From a virus (lineage: Duplodnaviria; Caudoviricetes): 64,000 nucleotides of DNA. Under the pieces are notes generated by a model that did no database searches, had not been told where the DNA came from, and was given only the letters and a program-made list of their open reading frames with translations. This document shows, one piece after another, positions 1 through 44,166 of the stretch; within the stretch, counting starts at the first letter, position 1, and the number at the start of each line of letters is the position of its first letter. The stretch lies in the IMG/VR virus record IMGVR_UViG_3300008954_000001. One strand, written 5' to 3'. A program made the position numbers and the translations under genes.

Positions 1-972
1 AAAGGAGAGTTGTGGACACATGCCGCATACACGGGGGGTCTAAAATCCACCCTTATGCTCAACTGGGCTTACAACCAAGCAGTGATCTACGGGGGTAGCT
101 CCTTGATCTTCTCCTTGGAGATGCCCTACGCCCAATGCCGTCGCATCCTGTACGCCATGCACAGCCTAAACCCTGCTTTACGAGACAAGCGTATCGAATT
201 GGGGATTGAAGCCAGCGATGGTCCTAACAGAGGTTTGAATTACGCCGACATCAAGCACGGCAAGCTGTCCCCAAACGGCAAGAAGTATTACTTCGATCAT
301 GTCACCCCACACTTCGCTGATGGCCCAACGGTCGCCCTACCAACCGGAGAACCTATTGGTCACGGAAAGATCAATATCGAAGTGGCCGATCCCGACAAAT
401 CGGATTTTACGGTAGCTGACCTACGCTCGAAAGCTGAACTGATCTACGCAGAGAACCCCTTTAGCGTGATCTTTGTAGACCACGCTGGCCTTATGGCCCC
501 TCGGTATCGGAACAGTTCGCAAACTGAACGGACCAATGAGGTCATGCGGGATCTCAAACGACTTGCGATGAGTTTCAACCGTGGACAAGGGATCGCTGTT
601 GTCGCCTTGTTTCAGATCAACCGCCAAGGTTTCAAGGAAGCCTGTAAGCGCAAAGAGAAGGGGTTGCCTCCTCTCTACACTCTTGCGGATCTTGCTTATG
701 CTAACGAAGCTGAAAAGTCCTCGGATGTTGTCACCGCTTCATTCATTGACGCAGAGCTTCGGAATCAAGGGCAAGTGCTCTTCCAATGTCTCAAAACAAG
801 AGACATGGAACCTTTCGACCCATTTTATTCGAGGGTAGAGTGGCCTTGTCGGAGAATCTTACATTGTGACGATATCCCCGACTTTGGTGTGGATGGTCGA
901 GAAAGGATTGCCCAACAAGCAGAAGCCCTTTCCGATCAACAAGCCCTCATCGATCAAATGTTAGACCTTTAA
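1..972 (+). CDS. dnaB: SF4 DnaB-like replicative helicase, C-terminal ATPase domain (5'-truncated by window edge)
   Basis: Frame is open from base 1 (KGELWTHAAYTGGLKST). Walker A-like AAYTGGLKST, H1a FSLEM, Walker B VIFVDHAGLM, H3 LFQINR, H4 DLAYANEAEKSSDVV and arginine finger KTRD occur in DnaB order. Confidence 0.85.
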   Translation, partial: KGELWTHAAYTGGLKSTLMLNWAYNQAVIYGGSSLIFSLEMPYAQCRRILYAMHSLNPALRDKRIELGIEASDGPNRGLNYADIKHGKLSPNGKKYYFDHVTPHFADGPTVALPTGEPIGHGKINIEVADPDKSDFTVADLRSKAELIYAENPFSVIFVDHAGLMAPRYRNSSQTERTNEVMRDLKRLAMSFNRGQGIAVVALFQINRQGFKEACKRKEKGLPPLYTLADLAYANEAEKSSDVVTASFIDAELRNQGQVLFQCLKTRDMEPFDPFYSRVEWPCRRILHCDDIPDFGVDGRERIAQQAEALSDQQALIDQMLDL

Positions 973-1286: not shown

Positions 1287-1541
1287 ATGAGTAAGGCGGC
1301 TGAAACCTTTATCGACCAATTCACCCGCAAATTACTTGTCGATTGGGCGCACCATCAAATCACTGGTGGGGAAATAGGCAGTCCGCCCCCGTTAGAGGTG
1401 TGTGGCCCTCGCCAGTGCGCCTATGGCTACAAACCATACATCGAACACGCCATATCCAAAGGCTGGTTGTCGAAGGATGGGCAACGAGTTTTAGCAAGGG
1501 GTTTCTCTGTGGCTACTTCCGCTATCAAGCGAGGTAACTGA
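1287..1541 (+). CDS. Hypothetical protein (84 aa)
   Basis: Abuts the upstream stop (TAA-ATG) and overlaps the downstream start (TGATG), tiling the operon. Confidence 0.65.
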   Translation: MSKAAETFIDQFTRKLLVDWAHHQITGGEIGSPPPLEVCGPRQCAYGYKPYIEHAISKGWLSKDGQRVLARGFSVATSAIKRGN

Positions 1542-2122
1542 TGGGGAGAGCAAAAAAGAGGGCTGACCGAATTCGTGAAGAAGTGCCTCTGGATGCCGTT
1601 CTTGCTCGGTACGGCTACGATGTCATCGAGAAAAGCGACCGAGAGCAACAGTTCTCATGTGACCTTCATGGCGATGGATCAGACAATAAACCTTCGGCCC
1701 GATACTATCCCGACAGTTCGTCTTGGTATTGCTTCGCTTGCTCAAAGAGTCGGGATGCGATCTCGACAGTCATGTCTAAAGAAGGGAAGTCTTTCTCGGA
1801 AGCCTGTACCTCTTTAGAGAAAGACTACGGCCTCCCCGCCTTGCCTTGGGAAGAGGAAGATCGGCCACAACGGATCGACAGTGAGATCACTGTCTCCATG
1901 CCCCGCACCGCACAAGAGATCAGCGGGCACGTACTCAAAACCCTCAAAGCATTTTCAATCGGCAAAGATATTCCTCTCAATTCTCTCCTTCAATTGTGGG
2001 AAGCCCACGACAAGTTGGTTTTCCTTCATCAAGAAGGGCATTTGACGGAGGATCAAATCAAAGAAGGGATGGCTCGGATCGCTAAAACCGCCATGCGGGT
2101 AGCACGAGAGCAGACCCTATAA
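1541..2122 (+). CDS. Stand-alone primase zinc-binding domain (CHC2 type) protein, no TOPRIM domain
   Basis: CDLH-x~17-WYCFAC plus DAISTVM..EG.SF.EA..L matches the DnaG N-terminal CHC2 domain. The remainder is a short helical tail with no EG/DxD TOPRIM motifs. Confidence 0.8.
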   Translation: MGRAKKRADRIREEVPLDAVLARYGYDVIEKSDREQQFSCDLHGDGSDNKPSARYYPDSSSWYCFACSKSRDAISTVMSKEGKSFSEACTSLEKDYGLPALPWEEEDRPQRIDSEITVSMPRTAQEISGHVLKTLKAFSIGKDIPLNSLLQLWEAHDKLVFLHQEGHLTEDQIKEGMARIAKTAMRVAREQTL

Positions 2123-2131
2123 GGAGCAACA

Positions 2132-2176
2132 ATGAAGACAGTTACCCCACTTTCAGACAATAAATGCGGCAACTAA
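2132..2176 (+). CDS. Putative 14-aa leader mini-ORF (MKTVTPLSDNKCGN)
   Basis: Strong SD AAGGAG at 2121-2126, ATG at 2132, TAA at 2174-2176 directly abutting the ATG of array unit 1 in the same frame. Confidence 0.4.
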   Translation: MKTVTPLSDNKCGN

Positions 2177-2764
2177 ATGAAGGTTGTCCATCTGGCCCGA
2201 AAACCCTTCAAAGGGACCGTAGCCCTCAATGTCCTTACCCATGGGGCGGGAGGGTTGAATATCAACGCTTCTCGTATCCGAGACGGGTCTGAAACTAATG
2301 AGGCCCCCCCTGAGTACATCCCCAACTATGAAAACGAAGTGTTCGGTAGTGGGATGGGTGGTGGAGCTTGGGCAAATACAAGCGGGCGGTGGCCAGCCAA
2401 CCTGATCTTTCAGCATCTTGAAGGCTGTGTTTGCAAAGGAACTAAAAAGGTAAAAGGGATCGCTGGTGGCTCTCATTCAGGGGTTGAGCACACTCATGCG
2501 GTTGGGGCAAAGCTCAAACGGCACGGGATTACTCGCCATAACGATTCTGACGGAAACGAAACCGTAGCCAATTGGGTCTGTGTAGAGGGTTGTCCAATAC
2601 CTGTCTTAGACAACCAAAGTGGGATCGTGCCTACGGGATCGTGGAACCGACAAAAAGACGGGGCGCACCCTTTCGGAAATGCCGCTGGAAGCGAATACAA
2701 TAACTGGAAGGTTGTAGATGAGCCTGAAGGTGGGGCCTCTCGCTTCTTTAAGGCGGTGAAATGA
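2177..2764 (+). CDS. Array unit 1: methyltransferase-TRD-like module (195 aa), no catalytic motifs
   Basis: Conserved blocks LARKPF.GTVA.NVLTHGAGGLNI / GRWPANLIFQH / ETVANWVCVEGCP..LDNQSG / GGASRFFKAVK. Confidence 0.8.
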   Translation: MKVVHLARKPFKGTVALNVLTHGAGGLNINASRIRDGSETNEAPPEYIPNYENEVFGSGMGGGAWANTSGRWPANLIFQHLEGCVCKGTKKVKGIAGGSHSGVEHTHAVGAKLKRHGITRHNDSDGNETVANWVCVEGCPIPVLDNQSGIVPTGSWNRQKDGAHPFGNAAGSEYNNWKVVDEPEGGASRFFKAVK

Positions 2765-3435
2765 AAGTTATCACTCTTGCTCGCAAGCCTTTTAGTGGAA
2801 CGGTTGCTCACAATATGCTTACGCATGGGTGTGGTGGACTCAACATAAACAAGTGTCGAGTAGGGGCTTCGGAGAGCGACGATTACGGACGCAGCGTAAC
2901 GAATAGTGATGGCACCATAAACGCCCATGGGGGTTTCAGTGGGAAAGCCTTCAAAATCAATGAAAGAGATGAGGAATACGCCAGCAACTACGCCCATACT
3001 TCAGGTCGATGGCCCTCTAATCTGATCTTTCAACACTGTGAAGATTGTCGGTGTGAAGGAATCAAGAAAGTAAAAGGGATTGCCGGAGGCTCAGAGCGAG
3101 TCTCATCTCCCCGATGGCGGCCATGTCCCAACTTCCGGTCCCATTCAGGGGTGGCGCAAACACATGAGGTTGGCGCAAAGCTCAAACGCCACCGTATCGC
3201 TCGCCACAATGATCCCGAAGGCAACGAAACGGTTGCTGATTGGGTCTGTGTTGAGGATTGCCCCATCAAGACTTTAGACGAACAGAGCATCGCTGGCGGT
3301 ATGCACAGTGCGGGGTCTTCTCGAAAGGCTTCACGTTCTGCTGGAAAGACAGGCATGTTTCCGATGGACGGGGACGGTCACCGTTTCGGAGATACTGGGG
3401 GTGCCTCAAGGTTCTTCAAACAGGTGAAGCCGTGA
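2761..3435 (+). CDS. Array unit 2: methyltransferase-TRD-like module (224 aa)
   Basis: Same four blocks; ATGA overlap with unit 1. Confidence 0.8.
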   Translation: MKVITLARKPFSGTVAHNMLTHGCGGLNINKCRVGASESDDYGRSVTNSDGTINAHGGFSGKAFKINERDEEYASNYAHTSGRWPSNLIFQHCEDCRCEGIKKVKGIAGGSERVSSPRWRPCPNFRSHSGVAQTHEVGAKLKRHRIARHNDPEGNETVADWVCVEDCPIKTLDEQSIAGGMHSAGSSRKASRSAGKTGMFPMDGDGHRFGDTGGASRFFKQVKP

Positions 3436-4082
3436 AAGTTATTACTCTGGCTCGAAAGCCCCTTCAGGAAAGCACCATCACTTCCAATGTCCTGACACAC
3501 GGAGCGGGGGGCCTAAACATCGGTGCATGTCGGCTTTCTACTTCAGATAGCCTCAACGGTGGGGCTTACGCTGTGAACCCAACCCATCGGGCGGGTCAGG
3601 ATATGTGGACCCGTGATCGTAAAGGTGACACCAACTGTTTCAAACGGGGTGGGGCGGGCCATTACGAGCAACCTACGGGCCGCTGGCCAGCTAATCTGAT
3701 CTTTCAACACTTCGCTGAATGTAGATGCGAGGGGGTCAAGAAGGTAAAAAGCCACCCGCACTTAGGGCAAAAGAATCCAGAACTCACCAAGCAGTACAAA
3801 GGCGGTGTTTTCGGGGGCGGCGGGATAACCCCCGCTGGAGGTTATGCAGATGTTGATGGCAATGAAACTATAGCAAATTGGGTTTGTGCGGCTGGTTGTC
3901 CAATACCTGCTTTAGACAACCAAAGCGGTGTCTCGATTTCTTCGGGAGGTCGAATCGGCAACGCTCAAGGGATTTATACTAATCAAGGTCGAACAGGGTG
4001 GGGTACGGGCCATGAGGCTGGCGATCCCGGTTTCGGAGATGAGGGCGGGGCATCACGTTACTTCAAGGCAGTAAAGCCATGA
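3432..4082 (+). CDS. Array unit 3: methyltransferase-TRD-like module (216 aa, GTG start)
   Basis: Start re-assigned from the track's 3258 to GTG 3432 (GTGA overlap with the unit 2 stop), which gives the family N-terminus (M)KVITLARKP. Confidence 0.8.
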   Translation: MKVITLARKPLQESTITSNVLTHGAGGLNIGACRLSTSDSLNGGAYAVNPTHRAGQDMWTRDRKGDTNCFKRGGAGHYEQPTGRWPANLIFQHFAECRCEGVKKVKSHPHLGQKNPELTKQYKGGVFGGGGITPAGGYADVDGNETIANWVCAAGCPIPALDNQSGVSISSGGRIGNAQGIYTNQGRTGWGTGHEAGDPGFGDEGGASRYFKAVKP

Positions 4083-4723
4083 AGACGATTACTCTTGCTC
4101 GAAAACCGTTTGATGGGACCGTAGCCCACAACATGCTTACGCATGGGTGTGGGGGTTTGAATATCAATACTTGTCGGATCACCTTAGAACCCAACAGTCG
4201 GTTGACCAAAGGCGGCTCATACTCAGGAAACCGTACAGGGAGTAACGCTTCCTCTATGTTCAACGGAGGAAACGGGAAGGTGGAATACACCCCACCCCCC
4301 GGAAGATGGCCCGCTAACTTAATCCTCCAACACCTTGAAGGGTGTAGGCGGGATGGGGTTAAGAAAGTCAAACCTTCCAATGGGTCAGGAAGAGCGGGTG
4401 CGGGGGCATCTGGATTCCAAACTTCCTACGTGGGGGGAGATTCTAAGGCAACAGGATTTACGGGCGGTTCTGTGGAAGAGGATGGCAAAGAAACCGTAGC
4501 CAATTGGATCTGTGAAGACGGCTGTCCCGTAAAAGCCTTGGATGAGCAAAGCGGGGTTTCTAAGTCTTCGGGAGGGCGTACCGCTAATATCTCCACCACC
4601 TCTACTATTTATGGAGGGGGCAAAGGATTAGGGCAAGACTTGACCGCTGATTCAGTGCGTGGAGATCCGGGTTTCGGAGACACGGGTGGGGCTTCCCGCT
4701 TCTACAAGCAGGTGGTCCGATGA
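4079..4723 (+). CDS. Array unit 4: methyltransferase-TRD-like module (214 aa)
   Basis: Same four blocks; ATGA overlap. Confidence 0.8.
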   Translation: MKTITLARKPFDGTVAHNMLTHGCGGLNINTCRITLEPNSRLTKGGSYSGNRTGSNASSMFNGGNGKVEYTPPPGRWPANLILQHLEGCRRDGVKKVKPSNGSGRAGAGASGFQTSYVGGDSKATGFTGGSVEEDGKETVANWICEDGCPVKALDEQSGVSKSSGGRTANISTTSTIYGGGKGLGQDLTADSVRGDPGFGDTGGASRFYKQVVR

Positions 4724-5334
4724 AAGTAATCACACTGGCTCGGAAACCATTTGAAGGCACGGTCGCCAATAATGTTCTTACACGGGGTTGTGGTGGGATC
4801 AATATCGATGGTGCTCGCATCGCCGCCCCAAATGAAACGATTACGACCCACACGAAATCTAACGAAGCCGCCAAAGGTAAAGGCATCTTTGGAGCTTATG
4901 GTGGGTTCAAGACTCACCAGACTCCGGGTCAAAAGCTCGGACGGTTCCCCTCGAACACCATCTTTCAGCATCGCCCTGAATGTGTCTGTTTAGGCGCACA
5001 GAGGGTCGCTGGCCGAAGCTCTTGTAAAACCTCAAGTCTTGGGCAGGGGCGTAATGTCCCCGTCACCAGTGGTATCTACGGAGCCAAAAACAGCTTTATT
5101 GGTGTGGCCCATGTGGATGCCGATGGCACAGAAATCATCAATGCGTGGGAATGTGTAGATGGTTGTCCTGTGAAAGCGTTGGACGATCAAAGTGGTGTTC
5201 TCACCAGTGGGAAGATGGCCCAAGAGGTGAAGGGCAACCAGTTCAATGTCTACGGTAAAATGTACGACCGCTATGTCGAAACCCATGGGGATTCAGGTGG
5301 AGCCTCCCGCTTCTTTAAGCAGGTGAAACCATGA
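4720..5334 (+). CDS. Array unit 5: methyltransferase-TRD-like module (204 aa)
   Basis: Same four blocks (GRFPSN variant); ATGA overlap. Confidence 0.8.
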   Translation: MKVITLARKPFEGTVANNVLTRGCGGINIDGARIAAPNETITTHTKSNEAAKGKGIFGAYGGFKTHQTPGQKLGRFPSNTIFQHRPECVCLGAQRVAGRSSCKTSSLGQGRNVPVTSGIYGAKNSFIGVAHVDADGTEIINAWECVDGCPVKALDDQSGVLTSGKMAQEVKGNQFNVYGKMYDRYVETHGDSGGASRFFKQVKP

Positions 5335-5966
5335 AGGTGCTCACGTTGGCTCGCAAACCCTTCAAGGGGACCGTAGCCCACAATATGCTTACGCATGGTT
5401 GTGGTGGGATCAACATAAAGGCATCAAGAGTGGGTTCTGAACAGGTTTCGACCCACAGCCGTGGATCAAATCAAGCATTCCCCAAACGGCCAACTGAAAC
5501 CACTGTGGAGGAGTCGGGGCGTAAAGCCCGTCAAGACATATTGGATCACGCTCCCCGAACGGGAAGATGGCCCACCAACCTCATACTAAGTCATCTCGAC
5601 GGGTGTAGAATCGAAGGCACTCGCAAGGTCAAATGCAGCAATCCCACAAGGGCTGACGGGACCATCCGAACAGGTGACAATGAGATATACGGGAAAAGAG
5701 ACGACGTTCCCTTGTCGAACACCAACTACGCAGACGAGAGCGGTATGGAAGAGACTCCTAACTGGGTTTGTGTTGAAGGTTGCCCTGTAAAAGCCTTGGA
5801 CGAACAGAGTGGGGTTTCGCAAAGCCCGTCTACATACACCCGTTCCGTCGCCTCTGGCAATTTAATGGTGTGGGGGGAAGGAGTGGGAGATAAGGCTGGA
5901 GTGGAGTCTCTTAACTATGGTGACAGCGGAGGGGCTTCCCGTTTTTTCAAACAGGTGAAGCCGTGA
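5331..5966 (+). CDS. Array unit 6: methyltransferase-TRD-like module (211 aa)
   Basis: Same four blocks; ATGA overlap. Confidence 0.8.
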   Translation: MKVLTLARKPFKGTVAHNMLTHGCGGINIKASRVGSEQVSTHSRGSNQAFPKRPTETTVEESGRKARQDILDHAPRTGRWPTNLILSHLDGCRIEGTRKVKCSNPTRADGTIRTGDNEIYGKRDDVPLSNTNYADESGMEETPNWVCVEGCPVKALDEQSGVSQSPSTYTRSVASGNLMVWGEGVGDKAGVESLNYGDSGGASRFFKQVKP

Positions 5967-6400
5967 GGGGGTTGGTTAGGTATCAACTCAAAGACCCGAC
6001 ATGGGGGGAGTTCACAGTTTTTAGACCGATCCCAAAAGACGGGGATCTTTGGGGCTGTCTCACCTCCCTAAAAGGCACCGAATGGGAGAAAATGATCCCC
6101 GTTGTTTCGGGGGAAAACCTATCCCATGCCCTACACGGGTATATCGCCCCCCTGCTGAAAGAAATCGGGCCAGAGCCACGGTTGTTGGCGAAGCAGGTAG
6201 GCCAGAAACAAGGCCGCTGTGCGCTCTATAAAACCTGTGTGGCCGCCGAACCCAGTTGCCTTCCCGCTGGACCCCCACCTGATTGTTATGAAGCCCCTAT
6301 GGAAGATTATGGAGCTTCTTTTGCCGCCACAACCGTTGTTTTGTGCTGGAAAACAGGGGGTTGGGTGGTTGTCGTGGGGGAGGGTGAATTTTCGATTTGA
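5963..6400 (+). CDS. Hypothetical Cys/Pro-rich protein (145 aa, GTG start)
   Basis: GTGA overlap with unit 6. CALYKTC...CLP...PDCY cluster suggests metal binding. Confidence 0.65.
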   Translation: MRGLVRYQLKDPTWGEFTVFRPIPKDGDLWGCLTSLKGTEWEKMIPVVSGENLSHALHGYIAPLLKEIGPEPRLLAKQVGQKQGRCALYKTCVAAEPSCLPAGPPPDCYEAPMEDYGASFAATTVVLCWKTGGWVVVVGEGEFSI

Positions 6401-6461
6401 GGGGGCCGTTTGCCTTCCATTTCAGTACAATTTGTAGAGAAAGCGAGGAGTAGAAGTAAAA

Positions 6462-9161
6462 ATGTCCTTTTTCGAGCAGTTATATGACTCTGTAAGGCCA
6501 GAAATTGAGCAACATCCGTGGATGACACAATGCACAATGACTCTGGTAACCACTGAAGCACAGCTAAAGGCGTGTGTGGATCAGTGTATTGCGGCGGGGT
6601 TGTACGCCTTGGATTTGGAGACCACGGGGCTGGATAGCCGAGTTTTTGACGGGGAAACCCGTGCGAAGATCGTAGGTTTTTGTCTCTCTCCTGATGAAAA
6701 TACGGGGTTTTATATCCCTGTACGACACCACAAGGGGGTCAATATCCCTTGGACGGTAGCCCACCGTGAGATGTCCCGATTGGGGGCTTCTGATGCCGTC
6801 GCCATTTTCCACAACGCTAAGTTTGACCAAGAGTTTTTGGAGTTCACTGGACTCGGATCGATTGGTGATTGGGATGACCCAAAGCGGTGGCACGATACGT
6901 TAATCATGGCGTATATCCGAAACCAGAAGGCCCGCCAAAAGGGGCTGAAGTTTCTGAGTAAGTCAGAGCTTGATTGTGAAATGATTGAGTTGCCTGACCT
7001 ATTTGGACCTGCCCATAAAGGCGACTTGGACTTTTCCTTGCTCGATTCGGCATGGGAACCCTGTCTTTGGTATGCCGCAGCCGACGCTATTTGCACCTTT
7101 AGGCTATTCAAGCACCTTGCTAAAGAGCTTGAAAGGCCGATTGAGGGCATTGCCCCCCTTTCGGGCATCTACACCATCGAAAAACTGGCTTTGACTGCGA
7201 CACGGTGGATGGAGCGGTGCCGCATCCAAATCGACCAAAGCAAAGCAAAGGAACTGATTCGTATCGGCCAAAAAGAGTGGTGGGAGTCTGTTTCCGATGT
7301 GTACAACTCAGCCCAAGACACTTTGGGGCGGGATGTGCGTCCTGCATGGGTCAAGTTGTTAGCTGGCGACCTTAAAAGTGGCCTGTCTTTTGACCCCGAC
7401 GAAGTAAGCCCTTCTTATATGGATCGGGTAAAGGAAGCTCGAAGCCATGCGAGGCGTATGAAGATGGATGCCGATGGTGTTGTCACAAAAGAAGTGACCT
7501 CATTGACATCAGATAAGAGCGAATCGGTGAACTTCCCTTTAGTGTACGACATTCTATCGGGGGATCAGCTTGGTAAGCTCTTTCGTGAACTGAAGGTTCC
7601 AGGGCTTCGGGCTACCGAAAAGTCAGGCCAAGTGAAGACCAGCAAAGATGAATTGGATCGAGTTGTTGAAGAGGCTGGCGAACGGTTCCCCTATATGGCG
7701 AAGATCAAGCGGTTCCGAGAGGTATCGAAGGCTCTATCGACCTATTTGATTTCCATGGTCGAGGACGCTGCTCCAGATGGATCGCTGAAAGCTAATTTCA
7801 ATGGTTTGCGTACAGACACGGGTCGCTTTTCGGCCCCTGTATCCAAACGCCCTAAAGTAGATGGTGGTTGTCGTGTGCCTTGGCAGGGGATGCCTTCGGG
7901 CTACGACCCCAACCGCCCCGAATGTTTGAAACGCTTGCGTGAATGTATTGTTGGGCGAGGCAATCGAGTTTTGATTGCCATCGACTACGCAGGGGTTGAG
8001 CTTCGTATCGCAACGAATCTTTCACTCGAACCCAAGTGGGCGAACGAGTATTTCCGTTGCGCCGATTGTGAGAAGAAGTTCGATAAAGGGGATGGAAAAG
8101 TCACCCCCTCTGCACCACCCCCGTTCTGTCCGAAATGTGGTTCAGATAAGATTGGGGATCTCCATAGCTTGACCACCATTATGTTGTATGGCGATGCCAT
8201 CAGGAAAGACAAGAAGGCATTCAAAGCCAAGCGACAGATTGGGAAGCAAACCAACTTCCTACTCTGTTACGGCGGTGGGCCTAATGCCCTTGTGCAACAG
8301 ATTGGTTTGGATCGGAGTGAGGCCGAACGGGTCAAGAGCACCTTCGACAAGCAATACCCCGCCTTGCGGAATTGGTGGGACCGCCAACACCGTTTTGGTC
8401 GCAAGTATGCGTTTGTATGCACGGCGTTCGGTCGTCGCTGTCCTGTACCTGACATCAACATGCCGAGATACGACAAGAAAACGGGTCGGCGTAACGGTTC
8501 TTTCATTTCCAAAGCTGAACGAAATGCGGTGAACGCTCCAGTACAAGGGACGTCTGCCGATATAACTAAGATGGCTATGGGCCTAATCTACCGCCACGCC
8601 AAAAAGAACGGCTGGTTGGATCGTATGGGAATGGTAATCACGATGCACGACGAACTTGTTTTCGATGTAGAGCCTTCGTTGGTGAAGGAATTCCTCGATG
8701 TCGTGCCTCGGATCATGTCCTCTAATAAGATGGTTCGTAGCCGAAAGTGGCCTATCCCCCTTACCGTAGACATTGAGATGGGTAAGGATTGGACGGTCCC
8801 TTACAATATTACCGAAATCCAAGAAACGAAAAAGGTTCCCGATGGGTTGAGGGATCTTCTTGGTGATTATGTGGATGACCTTATTGCGGACACCCCCACA
8901 GTTGAGGCACCTACCGATGCCCCACCTAAAACGAACGGGAAGTTCCAATATGAAATTAGTGGTCCACTTACAGTTCAGTTAGCGATCCGATTGGCGAAAG
9001 CCATTGAAGCTGCCCGTTCCCCTACGGGGAAGATTCTGAGTTTAGGAGGACCACACGGGGCAGTAGTAGCTAAACGTGCCTTTCAAGGCCGTCCCCCCCG
9101 TATTAATACGGAGGTTTTTATGAGTCTCGTTGGAGATTCAAAAGGAGAATATGATGAGTAG
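6462..9161 (+). CDS. polA: Family A DNA polymerase with 3'-5' exonuclease, no 5'-3' exonuclease, zinc-ribbon insertion
   Basis: ExoI LDLETTG, ExoII HNAKFD, ExoIII YAAADA; TDTGRFS; motif A IDYAGVELR; motif B RQIGKQTNFLLCYG (Phe at the E. coli 762-equivalent position); NAPVQGTSADITK; motif C MHDELVF. SD GAGGAG upstream. Confidence 0.95.
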   Translation: MSFFEQLYDSVRPEIEQHPWMTQCTMTLVTTEAQLKACVDQCIAAGLYALDLETTGLDSRVFDGETRAKIVGFCLSPDENTGFYIPVRHHKGVNIPWTVAHREMSRLGASDAVAIFHNAKFDQEFLEFTGLGSIGDWDDPKRWHDTLIMAYIRNQKARQKGLKFLSKSELDCEMIELPDLFGPAHKGDLDFSLLDSAWEPCLWYAAADAICTFRLFKHLAKELERPIEGIAPLSGIYTIEKLALTATRWMERCRIQIDQSKAKELIRIGQKEWWESVSDVYNSAQDTLGRDVRPAWVKLLAGDLKSGLSFDPDEVSPSYMDRVKEARSHARRMKMDADGVVTKEVTSLTSDKSESVNFPLVYDILSGDQLGKLFRELKVPGLRATEKSGQVKTSKDELDRVVEEAGERFPYMAKIKRFREVSKALSTYLISMVEDAAPDGSLKANFNGLRTDTGRFSAPVSKRPKVDGGCRVPWQGMPSGYDPNRPECLKRLRECIVGRGNRVLIAIDYAGVELRIATNLSLEPKWANEYFRCADCEKKFDKGDGKVTPSAPPPFCPKCGSDKIGDLHSLTTIMLYGDAIRKDKKAFKAKRQIGKQTNFLLCYGGGPNALVQQIGLDRSEAERVKSTFDKQYPALRNWWDRQHRFGRKYAFVCTAFGRRCPVPDINMPRYDKKTGRRNGSFISKAERNAVNAPVQGTSADITKMAMGLIYRHAKKNGWLDRMGMVITMHDELVFDVEPSLVKEFLDVVPRIMSSNKMVRSRKWPIPLTVDIEMGKDWTVPYNITEIQETKKVPDGLRDLLGDYVDDLIADTPTVEAPTDAPPKTNGKFQYEISGPLTVQLAIRLAKAIEAARSPTGKILSLGGPHGAVVAKRAFQGRPPRINTEVFMSLVGDSKGEYDE

Positions 9162-16213: not shown

Positions 16214-16471
16214 TTAGTCTCCTTTTCGAGTCTTATTCGTTCCAATTGCCCAAGGTGTAGCATCCTCAGGGATTGCACCCGGTAATACTACCCTTCCCTC
16301 AAGGGCATAATCCTTTCCGCCCGCAATTTCATCTAACCGCTTTTTTACGGCGGCTCGTTGCTGTTCGGAAAGAGCAGGGTTCAATAAGGCTCGCCTCAAT
16401 GACTTGCGCCACCTTTCTACGTGGGGAGACTTCTTTTTTGGGGAGATTTCTTTTGAGCTAATTCGGTGCAT
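16214..16471 (-). CDS. Small basic hypothetical protein (85 aa)
   Basis: TAATG overlap with the 1902-aa gene stop; ends 2 nt before the next start. Confidence 0.55.
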   Translation of the reverse strand: MHRISSKEISPKKKSPHVERWRKSLRRALLNPALSEQQRAAVKKRLDEIAGGKDYALEGRVVLPGAIPEDATPWAIGTNKTRKGD

Positions 16472-19400
16472 TATTCGTCCTCTCCCGGATAAGCGAGTGG
16501 GGGCATATGCGGGTCAGGTAGATCCCGTCTACGAGCTTTGTGCATCGGACGACCGTCAATACGGTATCGATCTGCTGCCGCATACCCTTCACCGAACCCT
16601 GTGGGGGAAATCTCCCCGCTCAAAGTAATTCCCTCTTGTAAGGTCTTGCCGTTACTGAGGACTCCATAAGTAACAATGAGGAGTTGGATCTCATCTCCGT
16701 CAGAACGCTTTTTCCCCACATGGGCGTTGGAAAAGGCATGTTCGTAGAAGTTCCTGACCAATATGGCCTTACATGCGAGGGCACCGCCCTTCATCATGGG
16801 ATCAAGAGATTTTGGCATCGAATCAGCTACCCAATCGATTGGGCCTCCTGGCTGATCCCCCGATAAGTTGAATACCGCCCCGCCGCCTCGATGGAGACGG
16901 AACTTCTTAACACCCGTATCCTCTGTGAAACCTTGGTAAGGGGCGTATTTGTTGATTGCCCCATCACTCATTGCGATTAACTCACCCGGCGCACCGAAAA
17001 ATCGTGTGTACTCTTGTCCGTTTGCTGCCAAAGGCAAAACATTCTGAACAGGGCGGATCGCTGATGTGCTGGTACGGAAAGCCGTAGCATTGTCTCCCAG
17101 CGGGTTTTCGCAAATGAAATCGGAGTCTTGAAGTAGGATTCCCAACGGCAATCGCTCGGTCATACCCGTCAGTCGAAGTTGGCTTTCTCCCAACCCTGCA
17201 TTGACAGGAATATCCATACCGCCAGCGAAGTTCGCCGCCGTAATGTGCTTAGGGTACTGCGTATTGTCGGTCGGAACTCGAATCGAAATGATTTGGTGCG
17301 CCATCGGAGAGTCTACATCGTGTACCCAATCAGGCCCAAACCCAACCTCAACACGCATTTGATTACCGATAGCTCCCGACTGTAGGGCTTCCAAAGTAAG
17401 GACATGCGAACCGTCCCAAGAACGGTTCCTTCCTCGACCACTGGTATCTAATGCCGATTGAAGTTCGGGATGGTGGCTAATCAGCATCCAAATGCTTTCC
17501 AAGGTGTTGTTCCAATTCTGGAACTCCGTACCCGTAGAATGCACTTTGAATTCGTTTGGACCCCATGGGCCAGCTTCCCAGTCAGCCTTTCCTGTAAAGG
17601 TAACTCGGCCCCCGTCCAAACGAGTAATCGTAATTTGGAAATCATGGAGAGCGGCCAACTGTTCAGGACTAATCCCAAAACGAAGCTCCGCTTGCGCCCG
17701 TGAAGGGTTCGTAATCTGCCCTTCCGTGTAGGCCCGTGATTGTACGTGCCACCGCCGAAAATGAACCGTCGCTTGATCTTCCGTGGGAACACGGATTGAA
17801 GAACCCGATGTTGGCTCAACTACGCCCACATCAAGTGCGGTGCCAGGGTATAACTTCCCTGCGATCTTGCCCGTTCCCATTGTCGTATAGAAATCCAAGC
17901 TGGCAAGGACTTCAAACCCACGAGGGTTCGGACGCTGAACCAGCAGGTTTCCATCTTCATCGAACTGTTTGATCGATTTAGATAGTTGATGGGTCTTTAG
18001 GAGACTTAGGCTTCCATACCGCTGTTGGTAATCATGCCTGTCAATAGAGTCTCCCGAATGGGTCATAAAAGGATCACCTTGATAGGGTGTCCGTGAGTAT
18101 GCGTTGTAGCCCGCATCGTTCTTGTTGGGGGCCGCTGGAACAACCATTTCCACATCAGCAAACTCGGCCTCTCCGAGAGACGCAAGGTCTTGGGGAACGC
18201 CTGAGTGTTTACGAGCAAGCACATAGTTATTCTTGTTGATAAACCCACGAGCAAAGCCGAACACCACACATTCAACAACATAGTCGAAATCATCAAAAGA
18301 ATGGCCGTCCCAATTCTCTGACAAGGTATGGTCAATGGCCTCACTTGGAATAATGTAGGTGTGGTCGTCTTCGTTGCCTGTGATACTCCCACCGTAAGTA
18401 CAAGTTGTCTCATCGTACTCGTACCCACCACCCTGTCGGATAAAGAGAGTCTGCTTGTCGGCATCTGTCTTTAGCAGGTTGGTTGGGGGGTTCTTAATCG
18501 GATTGATCCGAGCCAAATCCCCCGTAGCGTCAAACCCACCAGGAACATCGTCCTGTTGGTGCGCCTCGAATTCTTGTCGTTCGTAAACACCATACAAGCG
18601 AGCGATCCCGTAGTTCGGAGGAAGTTCAATACCTCGCATCCCGTAGCCGAGATCCGAAGAAATCACTTCGGGGAGGTAAACTTTCCTCGCCCCAATCGTC
18701 GGAGAAGCCGTCTGAGCGATCTGATTGCGAACACCATAAATGGTGTCTGTCTGAAACAATATCGGGGTTACTTGCTCATCTGTTGTAGAACCCTCGTTGT
18801 CCTCTCCGCCGATAATTGCGAATACATCTTCCGTCTCATTGGTGGAGTCCACGAAGAGATGGTTGATCCCAGACATGAAGGGGTCGTTGTCACCCACTCG
18901 CACATGGTACGGAATGTCCTGCCGCCCAAACTTCGGCATAACCTCTGGCGGAAGGGCAAAGCCCAACACCATGTTGGAGGTCCAAATATGTGCGGGATCT
19001 CGCAAGCTGTCTTTTGACAGCCCATGTGAATAAGTCTTTTCACCAATCAAAGAAGGGTCGGCTTCAGTTTCGTGTGTCCGAAGCGTCATTGTACGCCGTT
19101 GGAAAGGCCGCCAAATAACTGTCTTTGATCCGTGATCTACGAAAAGCTCGCACTCACGGTCCTGCTCAGACCGAAGAACAACTCGGCCACCATAATGAGG
19201 GGCCTCTGGAGCATTCCAACCCAAAGCAGGCAAATGGTTCCAAAGCTGAACGTGTGTCGGGCGATAATGCCGTTCTGTTTCAGGGAAAGAGGTGGCTCCG
19301 TTCCACTCAACATCAATTTCATTGATGTCGTTCCGAAGATAACTGGTCCCACCGTCCACAACCGCTACCCGCTCAATCTGATCGGGAACCCGTGTTGAAC

Positions 19401-22179
19401 CGCCCCTGGAAGGGCTGTACATAACGGAGCTTGTTAGGATTATGTTGGACTGAACAGGCTGTACTGGGGCGTTGGAGGAGCCAACATTGTCTACATGCCA
19501 CGGTAAGTCTTGCCCAATCCTGCCCTCAATATCATTCAACACAACACAAGCGGCTGAAACATTGTCGGAGCCTGAACCATCTTCTACGTGTGTGAACTGA
19601 GTTCGGATTTCAGCGGAAACCTTAAATTCGGCATTGTCCTCAATCCAATGGAACCCCGGCCCGTCGATGCTCCAGTCCCAGTCAGCACTCAAAGGAACCA
19701 CCGCAACGGAAGTGCTGTTTGCACAATCGTAATCTGTATAGCCAGTGTCTTTCCCCGCACCAATAATCTTGAAGGCCCCGTTATTCTGAGAGCCGCCATT
19801 ACTAACGTCTCCCCAAAGGACCAAATAAAGCTCACTGCTTTGTCCCGTGGAGTCTTGTCCATCGGCGGTCAAGAGACCGTAAAGGGTGTGTTCTCCCCGT
19901 AGTAGTGGCTGACCCACCTTATGAGGGTCATTCTCAATGGCCCCTTCATCGTCTAATGAGTGAAACAAGCCCGCATCATCAAAATCGATCCCAAGGTCCA
20001 CTTGGTAGAATTGACGCTCTGAACCGTCGTCTGCGGGATTCCTGAAAACAAGGGATGAGACAAGGCCCTCGGCAGAAGCCCCCGGCCAAGCAACGCCACC
20101 AAGAACAATAAAGGGGGTTTCAAACTTATGGTTACGCCATGGGAAAAACGGTCCTGGATGAGAATCCAGAATGGTTTGGCCCGTTTCGGTCTCAACCGTG
20201 GTCAATTCTCCGGGAGCGGCGGGTAGATGGATAGATTCGTCTTGGAAACGGATTGTCCATGGATATTGGTTTCCGTTCATAGGGTCTACTTGTGGATACC
20301 CCGCCTTCCAAAACTCCCGTGGCGATACAAACCTAACGCCTCGAACTTTTCCATTTCGGAAAGTTTGTCGGACTCCGCTACTGCCGTCCTGTCCTCCAAG
20401 GTGGAGGAAAATGACGCTTCCGTTGTTCCATCCAAGCGTCCCTTCACCATGCGCTTGCTTATTCATAAAGCCGGTGGGTCGAAGTTTTGCCTCAATCTCC
20501 CAGTTCAAACCTTCATCAAAAGTTGTGGAGGTGAACTGGTCTCCGTTTGTGCCGCCAAGAGTCGGCTCGAAGTCCAAGATAGCTGTCAGATTAGATTGGA
20601 TGACAGCGGCATCTGACCAAGTGGTTCTGACCCCATCGGGACCGTCAATGATTTCTACGTGGTCAGGGAAGTTCTCGCCCACGGGTGGGTCAAGGGCCGT
20701 CATATAATCCACATGATGGATCGTAGGGCCTTGGCACTCGTTTTCGGCGGCTCCCGCTTTCCAAGTTGTCCGTAGATCCCCACGGGCGAGGGCTGCGACA
20801 TTGTGGATAAGTAGCCGTTCGTAGTCCCAATCCCCGAAATTGATCCCACGGCGGAGATCTAAAACATCTCGTTCGGTGACTTGATCCGCATACAAACCAT
20901 CGGGCCGTACCCCATGTAGTTTGATCTTGGTCCCAGCGGGCCATCTGCGGGCCATGGTTCCACCACGCCCTCGGCTCGTAATCGTGAGCTTACTATTGCT
21001 GGTATCTGCGTTCGTGTATTGGACGAATTCTCTGTCGTTCCCTTCTCCAAACACCAAGAAGCGAGATTGTGGGTCATCCGATCCCGCTATAAAGAATAGG
21101 TAAGGGTCATCTAAACCACTACCAAGCAAATCCTCCACATCGATTTCGGCAGGGATCTCGGTCCCATCTTCATCAACCGCCCCAATATCAGGCGTGATTT
21201 CTGCGTGTAGGGTGCATTGAGTTAGAGGTACAGACCCATCTGGCGGGTTGGGTAAATAAGCCGCACCAGGAGTTCGTTCGGGCGCACCATTTTGGTTCGG
21301 CTCCGACTCATCGGGCATGATCGCTTTGTAGGGGTTTCCGTTTCGCCTGAACACGGCGCAAATCGGAATAGCGTAAACATACCCATCAATGGCCCCCAAA
21401 CCGTTATCGGGGTCGCCATCGCCCGCCCGCCATAAAGAGGGGTCGCCCATTTCCATTCGCATGTTCGAGAAATGGTGAGCCGCAGGGCTGTCTACTGGAG
21501 CATCGGCGGCACCTTGCGCCAAAATGTTCGGATCTTCAAACCCATCTGGATAAGCATCTAAAGCCGTGCCAGAGCCGTGTCCGTGTCCGTGTCCGTGAAC
21601 TCTAATGCGATATTGAAGCTGAACTCGTTCGGTGGTCTCAATGCCGATTGAGGGGTCTTGTAGGTCATCCTCAATGTTCACGCCTTGATGTTGGGTGTTA
21701 CCCCACTTATAGATTTCAGCCGCATTTGGCTTATTTTCTTCGGAAGGGTTCGGGGCTACGAGGCACCGCCACACCTCCAAAAAGACAAAATCAATGCGGG
21801 AATCGGTATTTGGGGGCGGCCAAAGTCGAATAATATTCTCTAAGGACTCGGAATCTACTCCAGCAACAGGGATAACCATCCCATCTACAACCGCATACAT
21901 ATGCGGTGCGCTCTCATCCGCTACTGTCTGACCGAAATGAAAGTGGTTTGCCCACAGGGGGTTAAACTTGTAGTCATCTGCGGATCTGGTTGGGTCAAGA
22001 AAGAATCCCGAATGAGCTTGGGATCGCACGGTCTGGCGTAGGGCCTCGAACTCCACTTGGCTCATGAGGTTTAACTCACTGTCCAGCGGAGGCTTACCCG
22101 ACTGCCAGACAACGGCGGAAAACTGTCGGGCCAGTGCCGACAGGGTGCGTGTTACGCCATTTCCGAAGTCTTCAGCCAT
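16471..22179 (-). CDS. Large virion structural protein (1902 aa), probable baseplate/tail component; paralog of 39998-43429
   Basis: N-terminal QSGKPPLDSELNL, DFVFLEVW, RVQLQYRIR, DGYVYAIPICAVFRRN, RPDG...DVLDLR. The Q.G...LD...N motif recalls DUF6519-like tail proteins. Located in the baseplate block. Confidence 0.6.
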   Translation of the reverse strand: MAEDFGNGVTRTLSALARQFSAVVWQSGKPPLDSELNLMSQVEFEALRQTVRSQAHSGFFLDPTRSADDYKFNPLWANHFHFGQTVADESAPHMYAVVDGMVIPVAGVDSESLENIIRLWPPPNTDSRIDFVFLEVWRCLVAPNPSEENKPNAAEIYKWGNTQHQGVNIEDDLQDPSIGIETTERVQLQYRIRVHGHGHGHGSGTALDAYPDGFEDPNILAQGAADAPVDSPAAHHFSNMRMEMGDPSLWRAGDGDPDNGLGAIDGYVYAIPICAVFRRNGNPYKAIMPDESEPNQNGAPERTPGAAYLPNPPDGSVPLTQCTLHAEITPDIGAVDEDGTEIPAEIDVEDLLGSGLDDPYLFFIAGSDDPQSRFLVFGEGNDREFVQYTNADTSNSKLTITSRGRGGTMARRWPAGTKIKLHGVRPDGLYADQVTERDVLDLRRGINFGDWDYERLLIHNVAALARGDLRTTWKAGAAENECQGPTIHHVDYMTALDPPVGENFPDHVEIIDGPDGVRTTWSDAAVIQSNLTAILDFEPTLGGTNGDQFTSTTFDEGLNWEIEAKLRPTGFMNKQAHGEGTLGWNNGSVIFLHLGGQDGSSGVRQTFRNGKVRGVRFVSPREFWKAGYPQVDPMNGNQYPWTIRFQDESIHLPAAPGELTTVETETGQTILDSHPGPFFPWRNHKFETPFIVLGGVAWPGASAEGLVSSLVFRNPADDGSERQFYQVDLGIDFDDAGLFHSLDDEGAIENDPHKVGQPLLRGEHTLYGLLTADGQDSTGQSSELYLVLWGDVSNGGSQNNGAFKIIGAGKDTGYTDYDCANSTSVAVVPLSADWDWSIDGPGFHWIEDNAEFKVSAEIRTQFTHVEDGSGSDNVSAACVVLNDIEGRIGQDLPWHVDNVGSSNAPVQPVQSNIILTSSVMYSPSRGGSTRVPDQIERVAVVDGGTSYLRNDINEIDVEWNGATSFPETERHYRPTHVQLWNHLPALGWNAPEAPHYGGRVVLRSEQDRECELFVDHGSKTVIWRPFQRRTMTLRTHETEADPSLIGEKTYSHGLSKDSLRDPAHIWTSNMVLGFALPPEVMPKFGRQDIPYHVRVGDNDPFMSGINHLFVDSTNETEDVFAIIGGEDNEGSTTDEQVTPILFQTDTIYGVRNQIAQTASPTIGARKVYLPEVISSDLGYGMRGIELPPNYGIARLYGVYERQEFEAHQQDDVPGGFDATGDLARINPIKNPPTNLLKTDADKQTLFIRQGGGYEYDETTCTYGGSITGNEDDHTYIIPSEAIDHTLSENWDGHSFDDFDYVVECVVFGFARGFINKNNYVLARKHSGVPQDLASLGEAEFADVEMVVPAAPNKNDAGYNAYSRTPYQGDPFMTHSGDSIDRHDYQQRYGSLSLLKTHQLSKSIKQFDEDGNLLVQRPNPRGFEVLASLDFYTTMGTGKIAGKLYPGTALDVGVVEPTSGSSIRVPTEDQATVHFRRWHVQSRAYTEGQITNPSRAQAELRFGISPEQLAALHDFQITITRLDGGRVTFTGKADWEAGPWGPNEFKVHSTGTEFQNWNNTLESIWMLISHHPELQSALDTSGRGRNRSWDGSHVLTLEALQSGAIGNQMRVEVGFGPDWVHDVDSPMAHQIISIRVPTDNTQYPKHITAANFAGGMDIPVNAGLGESQLRLTGMTERLPLGILLQDSDFICENPLGDNATAFRTSTSAIRPVQNVLPLAANGQEYTRFFGAPGELIAMSDGAINKYAPYQGFTEDTGVKKFRLHRGGGAVFNLSGDQPGGPIDWVADSMPKSLDPMMKGGALACKAILVRNFYEHAFSNAHVGKKRSDGDEIQLLIVTYGVLSNGKTLQEGITLSGEISPTGFGEGYAAADRYRIDGRPMHKARRRDLPDPHMPPLAYPGEDE

Positions 22180-23076: not shown

Positions 23077-23528
23077 TTTGACCCCCCCGTAGCGTATCGA
23101 TAGGCCACCTCTCTGGCGAAATTATCGACATTTTCTCGATACAGGGAAATGGCCCCATCTCGTTCTTGGGCAACGAGCTTTTCAATCGCCCTTGGGTCAT
23201 TACTAAAGGCTCGACCTCTTCCAGAGGTGGCGACTTTTGTATCTGCGGTCCATTTGATCTCGCCTTCGGGGTCTACAAAGCCGAGAACGGTGTAAGAAAT
23301 CGCCCCTTCTTCGTAAGGCTCCTGAAAGCTCACTGAACAAAATCCAGACCCAACTCGGATGTGGGGCTTGCTGCGGTATTTACGCCCAAAATGCTTACCC
23401 CAATACTCACACTCAATCTTGAGAGCATTAACCGGGGCGGCCAACTTCCAACGAGAGGCTACTTTCCGAGCTTGATGTCTTTTCAATATTTTCGGGATCA
23501 TTTTAGCCTTCCTCATCTCCAAGGACAT
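23073..23528 (-). CDS. Hypothetical basic protein (151 aa) with two A[RK][KE]VA.R[WY] motifs
   Basis: Overlaps the giant gene's 3' end by 26 nt; ATGA overlap downstream. Confidence 0.6.
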   Translation of the reverse strand: MSLEMRKAKMIPKILKRHQARKVASRWKLAAPVNALKIECEYWGKHFGRKYRSKPHIRVGSGFCSVSFQEPYEEGAISYTVLGFVDPEGEIKWTADTKVATSGRGRAFSNDPRAIEKLVAQERDGAISLYRENVDNFAREVAYRYATGGSK

Positions 23529-36540: not shown

Positions 36541-36573
36541 CAATCAATCTCCATGCTTCTGTGAAAGGCGGGG

Positions 36574-39500: not shown

Positions 39501-39996
39501 CCCCTCTCGGAGATCGCCAGAAGTAAGGGTAGATTTCAAGGCCCGTATCGGGGTCAGGAATTGGATCTCCATCAGGCCCCGGAACTTGGTAGTCCAACCA
39601 ACACCAATCTCCAGAGAGAATGTGGTGGGATCGAAGGAACCAAGTGGCATCGTCGAGCTTTAGAATCCCCCAATCAGGGATACTTGTCGTTTGAAAATAA
39701 TGAAGGCTATGGCCCACAGTTGGGGGCCGGGGGGGTACGAGAGCAGCGAGTTCATCCAGCACACCCTCAACATTAGAGGCATCATAGATTTTGGGTACAT
39801 CATCGACTGAAACTGAAGATGCTGGATGAGCATCATGCTCATCGATAATATGCTGCACCATGCCAGCACCCGCACCACCAGCGGCGGGAGCACCTGGTTC
39901 ACCAGATCCCGGAATAAAGGCGTTAACCTCAACGCTGTCGGAGGCGGCCAATCCGTGTCCGACCTTAATCGTTGCTGGGTCTATCTTTCGTGGCAT
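36592..39996 (-). CDS. Large virion structural protein (1134 aa), tail/baseplate-associated
   Basis: N-terminal HDAHPASSVS and NVEGVLDEL..PP.PP patterns typical of fibre-attachment regions; context in the structural block. Confidence 0.55.
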   Translation of the reverse strand: MPRKIDPATIKVGHGLAASDSVEVNAFIPGSGEPGAPAAGGAGAGMVQHIIDEHDAHPASSVSVDDVPKIYDASNVEGVLDELAALVPPRPPTVGHSLHYFQTTSIPDWGILKLDDATWFLRSHHILSGDWCWLDYQVPGPDGDPIPDPDTGLEIYPYFWRSPRGATEFLPKGNDPYTDPIFNVEDGSYLGGGVGKAHAGAFVREKDENSENNRLSMTHEIIPSSGPEGGKEVVVSGVVFPADRGTLALIRFEPNGEFAHLHHPEDFKLRVLAALNLGQGILDKCDGYPGGIFWLGEHGGDCAPHSYDPFTFPGRATGQYNLFEIHMGRDLHGNDLPNEFYDFDGDGSQGAPAAGQVRLGTDPNAGIELIPDGIPILGGSKIARGGGHKGNFFRYRLPYLVDYTKPHGLPWTPPEELYRFYEKPSIAALDPGTDLEHAGDFRSFAKDYWTYQVARYRHQFLLPDDTLLEYDPRDCGHYVLIHFKKEAYFEEMVRDLEMPTQDKMYSANLVDWSHLGSVWNKVRASTDPVHSSCYHVLRSNVYEDVLGDKDSEFCKHPVPPIVDGEGQHDIAQVSWEVGEVMAVSGIEYALSAGYEQNYTTGLRAEGLVVTLKAPDHDATPPVYGLFETSFLTHDGKDGYGESAITGDALYMGNMFPAFLGTSAFTPAADTTVATVGGGEPAEAFQQEINFRRGRIHFGTGHLLSDNASFPVPVEDTVAQMLLEQIDDPALYFDGDTLPKFSQDASLRAFFRRPLNHGRHMNHHDHFFDLGIRIYNYGEGLKDATLLWHGSDHSKDRPNPVRYSNLTDIWFSTPADPTTHEDLWHGAKDPKELFLDETYRYRSDFKAPDGSLPLGLKDTETLCGPGLPHGVITNLHVPIRLEDVHGTAWDAIHWLTSKSHTVPLTEAAQRLELQVAGWPDRNPFIKFGVTDPTPTSGILIYPQHDYTKNYLPTQNSACDYSGIEAADMADHISIGRSWVRAFGLGHDAVGASLVDLEIRGLNLEQFKWEAPEPGSPELAILIKVPGLTSWMDIGRRDGEGPSKQDPFADGAGCMVVGPETKDLTPMPKMGINRCTVRCNLGPPAQLFEGLNGAVILVKVIMYQGGGKYLNFEMGGPTAPPQHLQGLCGIRVAGVK

Positions 39997-39997
39997 C

Positions 39998-43429: not shown

Positions 43430-43443
43430 TCTCTGCCCCTACC

Positions 43444-44091: not shown

Positions 44092-44129
44092 TTGTCTAAC
44101 TCCTTCGGGGTCTCTCTCTCCGTGTATTC

Positions 44130-44146
44130 AATAGGTCGATTACCGA
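44130..44146 (-). promoter_or_regulatory. Candidate late promoter TCGGT-N7-CTATT (preceded by CCGTTCTA)
   Basis: Intergenic, 39 nt upstream of 44091. Confidence 0.55.
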
Positions 44147-44166
44147 TAGAACGGCCTGTTGTTGAA

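Follow-up and report, generated by a model that had tools for sequence, protein, structure and literature searches.

Specificity in Type I restriction-modification (R-M) systems is brought to the methylase subunit HsdM by HsdS, a separate, coupled polypeptide of which the variable recognition regions are shuffled among alleles. Among the cytosine-C5 DNA methyltransferases (MTases), M.AquI and M.EcoHK31I are active enzymes composed of two polypeptides, which are encoded by adjacent genes and split through or next to the variable region (PMC3404938). The multispecific cytosine-C5 MTases of the Bacillus phages SPR, phi3T, and rho11s combine several recognition modules with one core, according to work of Trautner and co-workers as cited in PMC7544214 (references 86 and 87 therein). 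Class beta MTases possess their motifs in the order IV, target recognition domain (TRD), and I, and both heteromeric representatives (MTA1-MTA9-p1-p2 and METTL3-METTL14) and 'division of labour' dimers (M.EcoP15I and CcrM) are known (PMC7544214). Full-text literature searches on split, multispecific, jumbo-phage, or PF01555 methyltransferases yielded no account of stand-alone recognition modules or of arrays of such modules. An array of this kind was found in the window analysed here, a stretch of 64,000 nucleotides (nt) that corresponds to bases 76349-140348 of a 152.5-kb IMG/VR virus record (IMGVR_UViG_3300008954_000001). It consists of six translationally coupled open reading frames (ORFs) on the plus strand (2177-5966), the products of which (195-224 amino acids, aa) are probably recognition subunits, free-standing and exchangeable, of a split beta-class (PF01555) DNA amino-methyltransferase with several subunits. 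As CheckV rated the 152.5-kb record about 36% complete, the source genome is that of a jumbo phage. The public runs containing the array DNA were marine metagenomes from a single study (four DNA runs).

The products of the six ORFs, referred to as units 1 to 6, are basic proteins (predicted isoelectric point, pI, of 8.7-9.4) that are 43-59% identical to unit 1. Their alignment contains 46 invariant columns and is made up of four conserved blocks, which include LARKP, GRWP.N, W.C...CP...LD.QSG, and GGASRFFK, and three variable segments. Motif IV (DPPY/NPPY) and a conserved motif I (FxGxG) were absent from all six units, and an FxGxG motif preceded by motif X (HPT.KP) was not found in them either. 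Pfam assigned no family to the units, PF01555 not being matched even at E-values up to 10, and a sequence profile search of the PDB with the units gave no match at E-values up to 10. A profile built from the six units and searched against 1.84 billion cluster representatives retrieved 14,682 of these at E ≤ 0.001. About half of the best matches were stand-alone proteins of 195-230 aa, the remainder being proteins of 400-1360 aa with one to five module stretches. In these long proteins, module positions 4-209 aligned within the PF01555 match, flanked by a DPPY part on the N-terminal side and by a part that binds S-adenosylmethionine (SAM) on the C-terminal side. For instance, P0242 (449 aa) matches PF01555 at 20-434 and the module at 152-347, P0122 contains four module stretches between two PF01555 halves, P0121 has three modules and the C half only, and P0180 has the N half and a module. 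Similarly, the units matched the first 80-120 positions of phrog_3008, annotated as 'DNA methyltransferase', with E-values of 4e-14 to 6.5e-08. Profiles of the N half and C half, built from the flanks of the long module proteins, displayed the consensus sequences DPPYG and HPTVKP followed by LDPFAGSGSTG, respectively. This full-length subfamily is very large (at least 8000 matches). Among cultured phages, the family is represented by single-chain proteins that contain no more than the first part of the insert (for example, Mycobacterium phage Eyeball gp60), and the sole match to the full module in the phage collection came from an uncultured phage of 485 kb. Among candidates of similar length, 779 matches at E ≤ 0.001 were found, representing metagenomic proteins of about 210 aa. 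Judged by their sequences, the units are full-length homologues of the insert in the ARKP/GRWPAN subfamily of PF01555, and they are not active PF01555 enzymes themselves, motifs IV and I being absent.

Structure prediction indicated how much of the enzyme is comprised in a unit. The AlphaFold2 model of the full-length form (predicted local distance difference test, pLDDT, of 73) has a fold that matches those of CcrM, M.BceJIV, TTHA0409, M1.HpyAVI, MboIIA, and RsrI. Given the class beta order of motifs, the module sits at the TRD position. In this model, the first strand of the module (EPIVLARKP) and the helix that follows have a pLDDT above 90 and are part of the Rossmann-like core. Unit 4 modelled alone reached a pLDDT of 57, with confidence restricted to two beta-hairpin regions that contain an invariant His and three Cys. 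As the first strand and helix belong to the core and the lone unit is modelled poorly, a unit is, according to these models, not a self-contained TRD but the motif VIII core strand and helix plus the insert at the TRD position. The residues concerned (H85, C89, C145, and C149) were invariant among 146 sequences and form a putative zinc site. Furthermore, the module is composite, as long proteins repeat its second and third parts only (profile positions of about 76-209) or its third part only (about 145-209). An earlier first-pass annotation of this DNA, made from the letters and ORF list, had described six adjacent ORFs with four common blocks and three variable segments, lacking DPPY/NPPY and a conserved FxGxG, and had placed the blocks in the internal segment of a PF01555 subfamily between motifs IV and I. 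The ORF list, alignment, and profile search agree with it in all these respects. Its statement that the units are cut exactly at the TRD boundaries has to be corrected, since they start at the motif VIII core beta-strand. Of its designation 'TRD-only', the insert at the TRD position stands and the word 'only' does not, as each unit contains motif VIII too.

The halves that flank the insert were encountered in related jumbo phages. All 19 large related jumbo-phage records that could be searched contained both the module and PF01555 pieces, mostly split into separate N, module (M), and C genes. A neighbourhood map of the relatives, comprising 77 loci, revealed a recurrent design in which an N protein, a module protein, and a C protein are encoded by three separate, coupled ORFs. 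The N protein (about 185 aa) carries DPPY and ends exactly at a motif VIII strand of its own (WEPVCVGVKK). The C protein (about 240 aa) has a pseudo N-lobe in which motif IV is degenerate (LLxEPTEE), followed by FYYxSKAS, HPTVKP, and DPFLGSGTTG. Modules often outnumber cores, as in the complete, terminally repeated genome G007, which possesses three M genes, one N gene, and one C gene. Fusions occur in every combination, namely N-M-C, N-M (P0180 and P0043), M-C (P0121 and phrog_3008), and N'-M (P0184). The closest relative of unit 4 (P0002; 66% identical) is encoded on an 8.3-kb contig that harbours five complete module-sized ORFs and a sixth one truncated by the end of the contig. These ORFs overlap one another by 4 nt, and a PF01555 ORF of 294 aa follows the array directly, with a 4-nt overlap too. 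Module clusters often occupy one hot spot, which lies between the DnaB and primase/PolA genes of an operon homologous to that of the window (DnaB identity of 47-59%), and a single orphan module is present there in loci L014, L035, and L061. In three records with an orphan module, namely G004 (L014), G002 (L061), and G011 (orphan in L049), N and C genes were present elsewhere in the record; partner genes can be 35-130 kb away from the orphan module.

Two further observations concern the split proteins of these relatives. In loci L010, L018, and L028, the DPPY and SAM-binding motifs are on different proteins, and the motif VIII strand is doubled, being present in both N and M. In addition, the C proteins encoded by L010:8572-9390, L028:10651-11364, and 11 other C ORFs end in S-[IL]-F-D-[LI]-F or SLF. 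These tails resemble sliding-clamp-binding peptides in sequence, which would fit the site of the clusters in the replisome operon and methylation at the replication fork.

The contact between a unit and such a split core was modelled with unit 4 of the window and the two core proteins (N and C) encoded by locus L010, using a separate self-made alignment for each chain. A model of a unit with a catalytic part had been suggested by the first-pass annotation, and this complex obtained an interface score (ipSAE) of 0.89 in all three runs, versus 0.43 for the best of three controls. In the calibration of the tool, 58 of 80 solved complexes and two of 110 mismatched pairs attained that mark. The three runs had at least 71% of their contacts in common, the pLDDT of the partner being 56. 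In the model, strands 5 and 6 of the pseudo N-lobe of the C protein (residues 64-73 and 93-101) pair with residues 4-9 of the unit, which take the place of strand 7 of the fold. Further contacts are made by RWPANLI (unit residues 76-84) and by the SRFF block at the C-terminal end. The natural N'-M fusion P0184 has the same order as the modelled docking. The model thus supports docking of the unit on the split core by strand complementation. Of the possibilities raised in the first-pass annotation, specificity subunits that complement a split methylase in trans are best supported, namely by the split N, module, and C ORFs of the relatives, the fusions, and the docking model.

The three variable segments behave as separate entities. 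For their comparison, 216 distinct stand-alone modules were aligned to the profile, and the loops were defined as V1 (between NI..R and GRWP), V2 (between KKVK and DG.E), and V3 (between QSG and GD.GGASRF). For every loop, discrete types could be distinguished, which are found nearly unchanged in otherwise diverged proteins and which assort independently. For example, unit 2 and P0051 have V3 in common (100% identity), with identities of 12% for V1, 13% for V2, and 73% for the conserved blocks. Unit 6 and P0106 agree in V1 (98%) and differ in V2 (26%) and V3 (14%), with 72% identity in the conserved blocks. Unit 4 is close to P0006 in V1 (78%; 21% for V2, 10% for V3, and 77% for the conserved blocks) and to P0012 in V2 (91%; 29% for V1, 25% for V3, and 77% for the conserved blocks). 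Only 16 of 222 pairs with the same V1 type had the V2 type in common as well. Loop types cross architectures too: V2 of unit 3 is of a type also present in P0183, a full-length PF01555 MTase (79%), and the N-M fusion P0043 has the V1 type of unit 4 (93%). About 100 or more natural types exist per loop among the 216 sequences. Being better conserved than the scaffold and exchanged as units, the loops are as expected of specificity determinants and presumably set the sequence specificity.

The array has the following layout. Unit 1 (2177..2764; 195 aa, pI 8.7) is supported by the ORF list, the alignment, a profile match (1e-83), and an N-terminal match to phrog_3008 (5.8e-08), and is followed by unit 2 (2761..3435; 224 aa; ORF list, alignment, and profile match). 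Unit 3 (3432..4082; 216 aa) was listed from an upstream TTG codon, and the start homologous to those of the other units is the GTG codon at 3432, which overlaps the stop codon of unit 2. Unit 4 (4079..4723; 214 aa; ORF list and alignment) was the query for the fold and complex models, and unit 5 (4720..5334; 204 aa; ORF list, alignment, and profile match) and unit 6 (5331..5966; 211 aa; ORF list and alignment) complete the array, all units being on the plus strand. From unit 2 onwards, each array ORF overlaps the preceding stop codon by 4 nt (ATGA or GTGA), in the -1 frame. A Shine-Dalgarno (SD)-like AGGTGA occurs 5-8 nt before the start of every unit, encoded within the codons of the conserved tail KQVKP. 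No promoter-like or terminator-like sites were found on the plus strand within the array. This layout bears on the reading that the six ORFs are a multi-module polyprotein, comparable with P0121 and P0122, that was broken by frameshifts or is rejoined by programmed -1 frameshifting. Such a reading could account for the -1 shift at every junction, and single-chain proteins with three or four modules do exist. It is very improbable, however, as the breaks fall exactly at the module boundaries, with the start codon at the first module residue and no linker, as the same 4-nt-overlap design is found in independent relatives, and as all six units are under purifying selection and the contigs of three samples are identical. 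Programmed frameshifting between units was ruled out, no slippery heptamers being present at the junctions.

Indeed, the conserved blocks showed a proportion of synonymous differences (pS) of 0.64-0.94, which means that synonymous sites are saturated, versus a proportion of nonsynonymous differences (pN) of 0.14-0.26, so that purifying selection acts on all six units. In three samples from a single marine study, Logan contigs covered 1500-3121, 3092-6108, and 3110-6500 with 0 differences and no joints. The saturated synonymous sites, the low pN, and the agreement of the contigs indicate that the array copies are old and selected, which excludes decay and an artefact; a recent tandem duplication is ruled out by the saturated sites. 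As to the outcomes that the first-pass annotation had named as fatal to its interpretation, neither decay with relaxed conserved blocks nor an assembly artefact was encountered, and the profile and structure searches, far from showing no relation to MTases, embedded the module in PF01555. Synonymous differences between units were often above the random expectation of 0.75 and amounted to 0.94 for units 3 and 6, based on small counts; this excess may reflect selection against nucleotide identity among tandem paralogues.

The same data bear on a second possibility considered in the first-pass annotation, namely a silent cassette library that recombines into an expressed full-length methylase via the conserved flanks, as in a shufflon or phase-variation system. 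Every unit does have conserved blocks at both ends, and the family-wide mosaicism indicates that loop segments were exchanged over evolutionary time. Yet all units have one orientation and each has its own start codon and SD-like sequence, the synonymous sites of the flanks are saturated, and the longest exact stretch common to two units is 21 nt. Moreover, the contigs of the four runs, which drop rare variants, contained no joints or alternative junctions. The neighbouring genes scanned belonged to helicase or primase families or to no family, with no recombinase among them, and no acceptor gene was present within the 152-kb record. The cassette library is thus unsupported and even less probable than a broken polyprotein.

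One insertion in the array deserves separate mention. Compared with unit 1, the V2 loop of unit 2 contains a 48-nt in-frame insertion of 16 aa (3092..3139, plus strand), visible as an alignment gap; outside this insertion, the loop is related to V2 of unit 1 (52% identical). The 48-mer is single-copy within the 152-kb record. In three marine runs, it had about double depth and formed a De Bruijn branch with loose ends. The assembly graph links it to other contigs of equal depth, where it is read in a different frame near a protein start. The 48-mer might be mobile, as a small in-frame insert, or might be present once more in the portion of the genome outside the record.

If the six units are recognition subunits, a mechanism can be proposed as follows. 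With its N-terminal strand (ITLARKP), a unit would supply strand 7 of the Rossmann-like sheet of the core, together with the GRWPAN and SRFF blocks, and a putative zinc-bound His/Cys3 scaffold would present the three variable loops to the DNA. One unit at a time would act on the same catalytic core, with a different target sequence for each unit, as the loops differ in all six and belong to discrete, independently assorting types. In this way, the phage would methylate many motifs on its newly replicated DNA and evade many of the restriction systems of its hosts. The genes of the catalytic N and C proteins presumably lie in the approximately 64% of the genome that is outside the record.

Several points weigh against recognition subunits of a split MTase. 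Neither a DPPY half nor a SAM-binding half was found in the 152-kb record when it was searched in six frames, with filters off, with PF01555 and the hidden Markov models (HMMs) of the subfamily N half and C half; a full or catalytic-only MTase, for which the first-pass annotation had advised to look, was hence not recovered from this record, in which the array is flanked by replication genes only. Also, the N ORFs of the relatives keep a motif VIII strand of their own and the C ORFs carry a pseudo N-lobe in which motif IV is degenerate, which complicates the stoichiometry and the assignment of the site of catalysis. The docking evidence is a model, with core proteins from another phage, and its score may reflect single-chain methyltransferases learned by the prediction program. 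Finally, the label 'TRD' is given by position and variability only. The sole marginal match of the C-half HMM in the record (E-value of 0.002) was G000:C1:13850-14623 (minus strand; L085), an ORF of about 250 aa that belongs to no Pfam family and contains a glycine loop (VLEIGAGRG) like that of class I SAM methyltransferases. The 152-kb record gave no other methyltransferase-like signal, and this ORF was rejected as catalytic partner, its GxGxG being generic and the ORF itself unrelated to the split-core proteins.

The missing core leaves room for units that work without any MTase core, as basic, zinc-binding proteins acting on DNA or on host restriction or defence proteins at the fork, for instance as site-specific shields or decoys. 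Such a role would be in line with the basic nature of the units and with their conserved site within the DnaB-primase-PolA operon, which includes the single orphan modules, and the strongly conserved loop types would mean that each has a specific ligand. It is nevertheless unlikely, although clearly less so than a polyprotein or a cassette library, and it retains this share of credence mainly because no catalytic half occurs in the 152-kb record. That absence is weak evidence, given that about 64% of the genome is outside the record and that partners are located 35-130 kb away in relatives. Furthermore, N and C pieces accompany the module in every relative for which enough genome was available, and direct coupling to a PF01555 ORF is seen in the closest array. 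The lone unit is modelled poorly, and its N-terminal strand and helix are MTase core elements. The decoys or protectors that the first-pass annotation had listed as a third option are disfavoured on the same grounds, the pLDDT of the lone unit and a core strand that would need a partner sheet.

The genes around the array are those of a replication operon. Upstream, the window starts with the C-terminal part of a DnaB-like helicase (1..972, plus strand; PF03796, 3.4e-13), homologues of which, 47-59% identical, flank the module clusters of the relatives. A CHC2 zinc-finger primase-like protein (1541..2122, plus strand; PF01807, 3.5e-08) is encoded immediately upstream of the array. Downstream, unit 6 is coupled by GTGA to ORF7 (5963..6400, plus strand; 145 aa), for which no Pfam family was found. 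Many related jumbo phages have a homologue of ORF7 (35-44% identity) between primase and PolA, indicating a conserved member of the replisome operon; in some of these phages, it directly follows a module. The next ORF (6462..9161, plus strand; 899 aa) is family A DNA polymerase-like, a name given from reading of the sequence, and has homologues of 40-51% identity at the equivalent operon position in relatives. Elsewhere, the middle of the window contains very large ORFs on the minus strand (16471-22179, 23503-36543, and 36592-49188), encoding products of 1902, 4346, 1134, 1143, and 1673 aa.

Beyond this locus, a wider picture of combinatorial methylation in marine jumbo phages is offered tentatively, as a plausible view that falls somewhat short of the confidence placed in the units as recognition subunits. 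It would involve one split core, possibly tethered to the replisome, and a library of strand-complementing subunits built as three-loop mosaics on a zinc scaffold, with many motifs methylated per phage and new ones arising by loop swapping. If true, the logic of the Type I S subunit would have been re-invented inside Type II-like orphan methylases, and a further DNA methyltransferase architecture would exist, in which a detachable recognition subunit completes the catalytic fold and is encoded as arrays of alternatives. This would account for the ability of huge phages that have a broad or changing range of hosts to escape many restriction systems at little coding cost. It would also provide a natural modular scaffold for the engineering of methyltransferase specificity by way of three short loops. 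Hundreds of metagenomic proteins of about 210 aa, now without family or listed as 'hypothetical', would have their annotation corrected.

Compared with the systems mentioned at the outset, the array belongs to none of them, as it does not encode an active PF01555 enzyme, has no homology to HsdS, and is not of the C5 class. Neither is it likely to be a shufflon or set of phase-variable cassettes, as the units have no long repeats in common, the flanking genes scanned included no recombinase family, and the contigs of the four runs, from which rare variants are lost, contained no alternative junctions. The single-chain beta-class N6/N4 MTases of phages and prophages with an ARKP...GRWPAN...SRFFY insert (P0242, and Eyeball gp60 for the first part) have an insert homologous to the units, including the motif VIII strand, whereas the units of the window are without the DPPY and SAM-binding halves and are separate proteins, six in a row. 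The DPPY-bearing N protein of the relatives and their C protein, with a dead motif IV and an intact SAM motif, recall catalytic/non-catalytic pairs that leave recognition to a further part, such as MTA1-MTA9 and METTL3-METTL14, as well as the beta-class dimers with a division of labour (M.EcoP15I and CcrM). The MTA and METTL complexes belong to eukaryotes, however, the DNA-binding subunits of the ciliate enzyme are unrelated to the MTase fold, and the phage arrangement is inferred. A likeness to M.AquI and M.EcoHK31I may be seen in a naturally split enzyme encoded by adjacent genes, but these are C5 enzymes of two parts and one specificity, with no array of alternatives. As in the multispecific C5 MTases of the Bacillus phages, protection would be widened by several modules per core, the covalent forms P0121 and P0122 being the direct analogue; the core here would be that of an amino-MTase and the modules are separate genes instead of TRDs in one polypeptide. 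With HsdS, the units have no relation in sequence or Pfam family (PF01420, Methylase_S, was not matched, and the PDB search gave no hit). The proposed complex would also differ from HsdS/HsdM in having a beta-class PF01555 core instead of a gamma-class HsdM, predicted beta-strand complementation, and three short loops instead of two TRDs. What the two would have in common, by analogy, is a separate, coupled recognition polypeptide that serves a methylase core.

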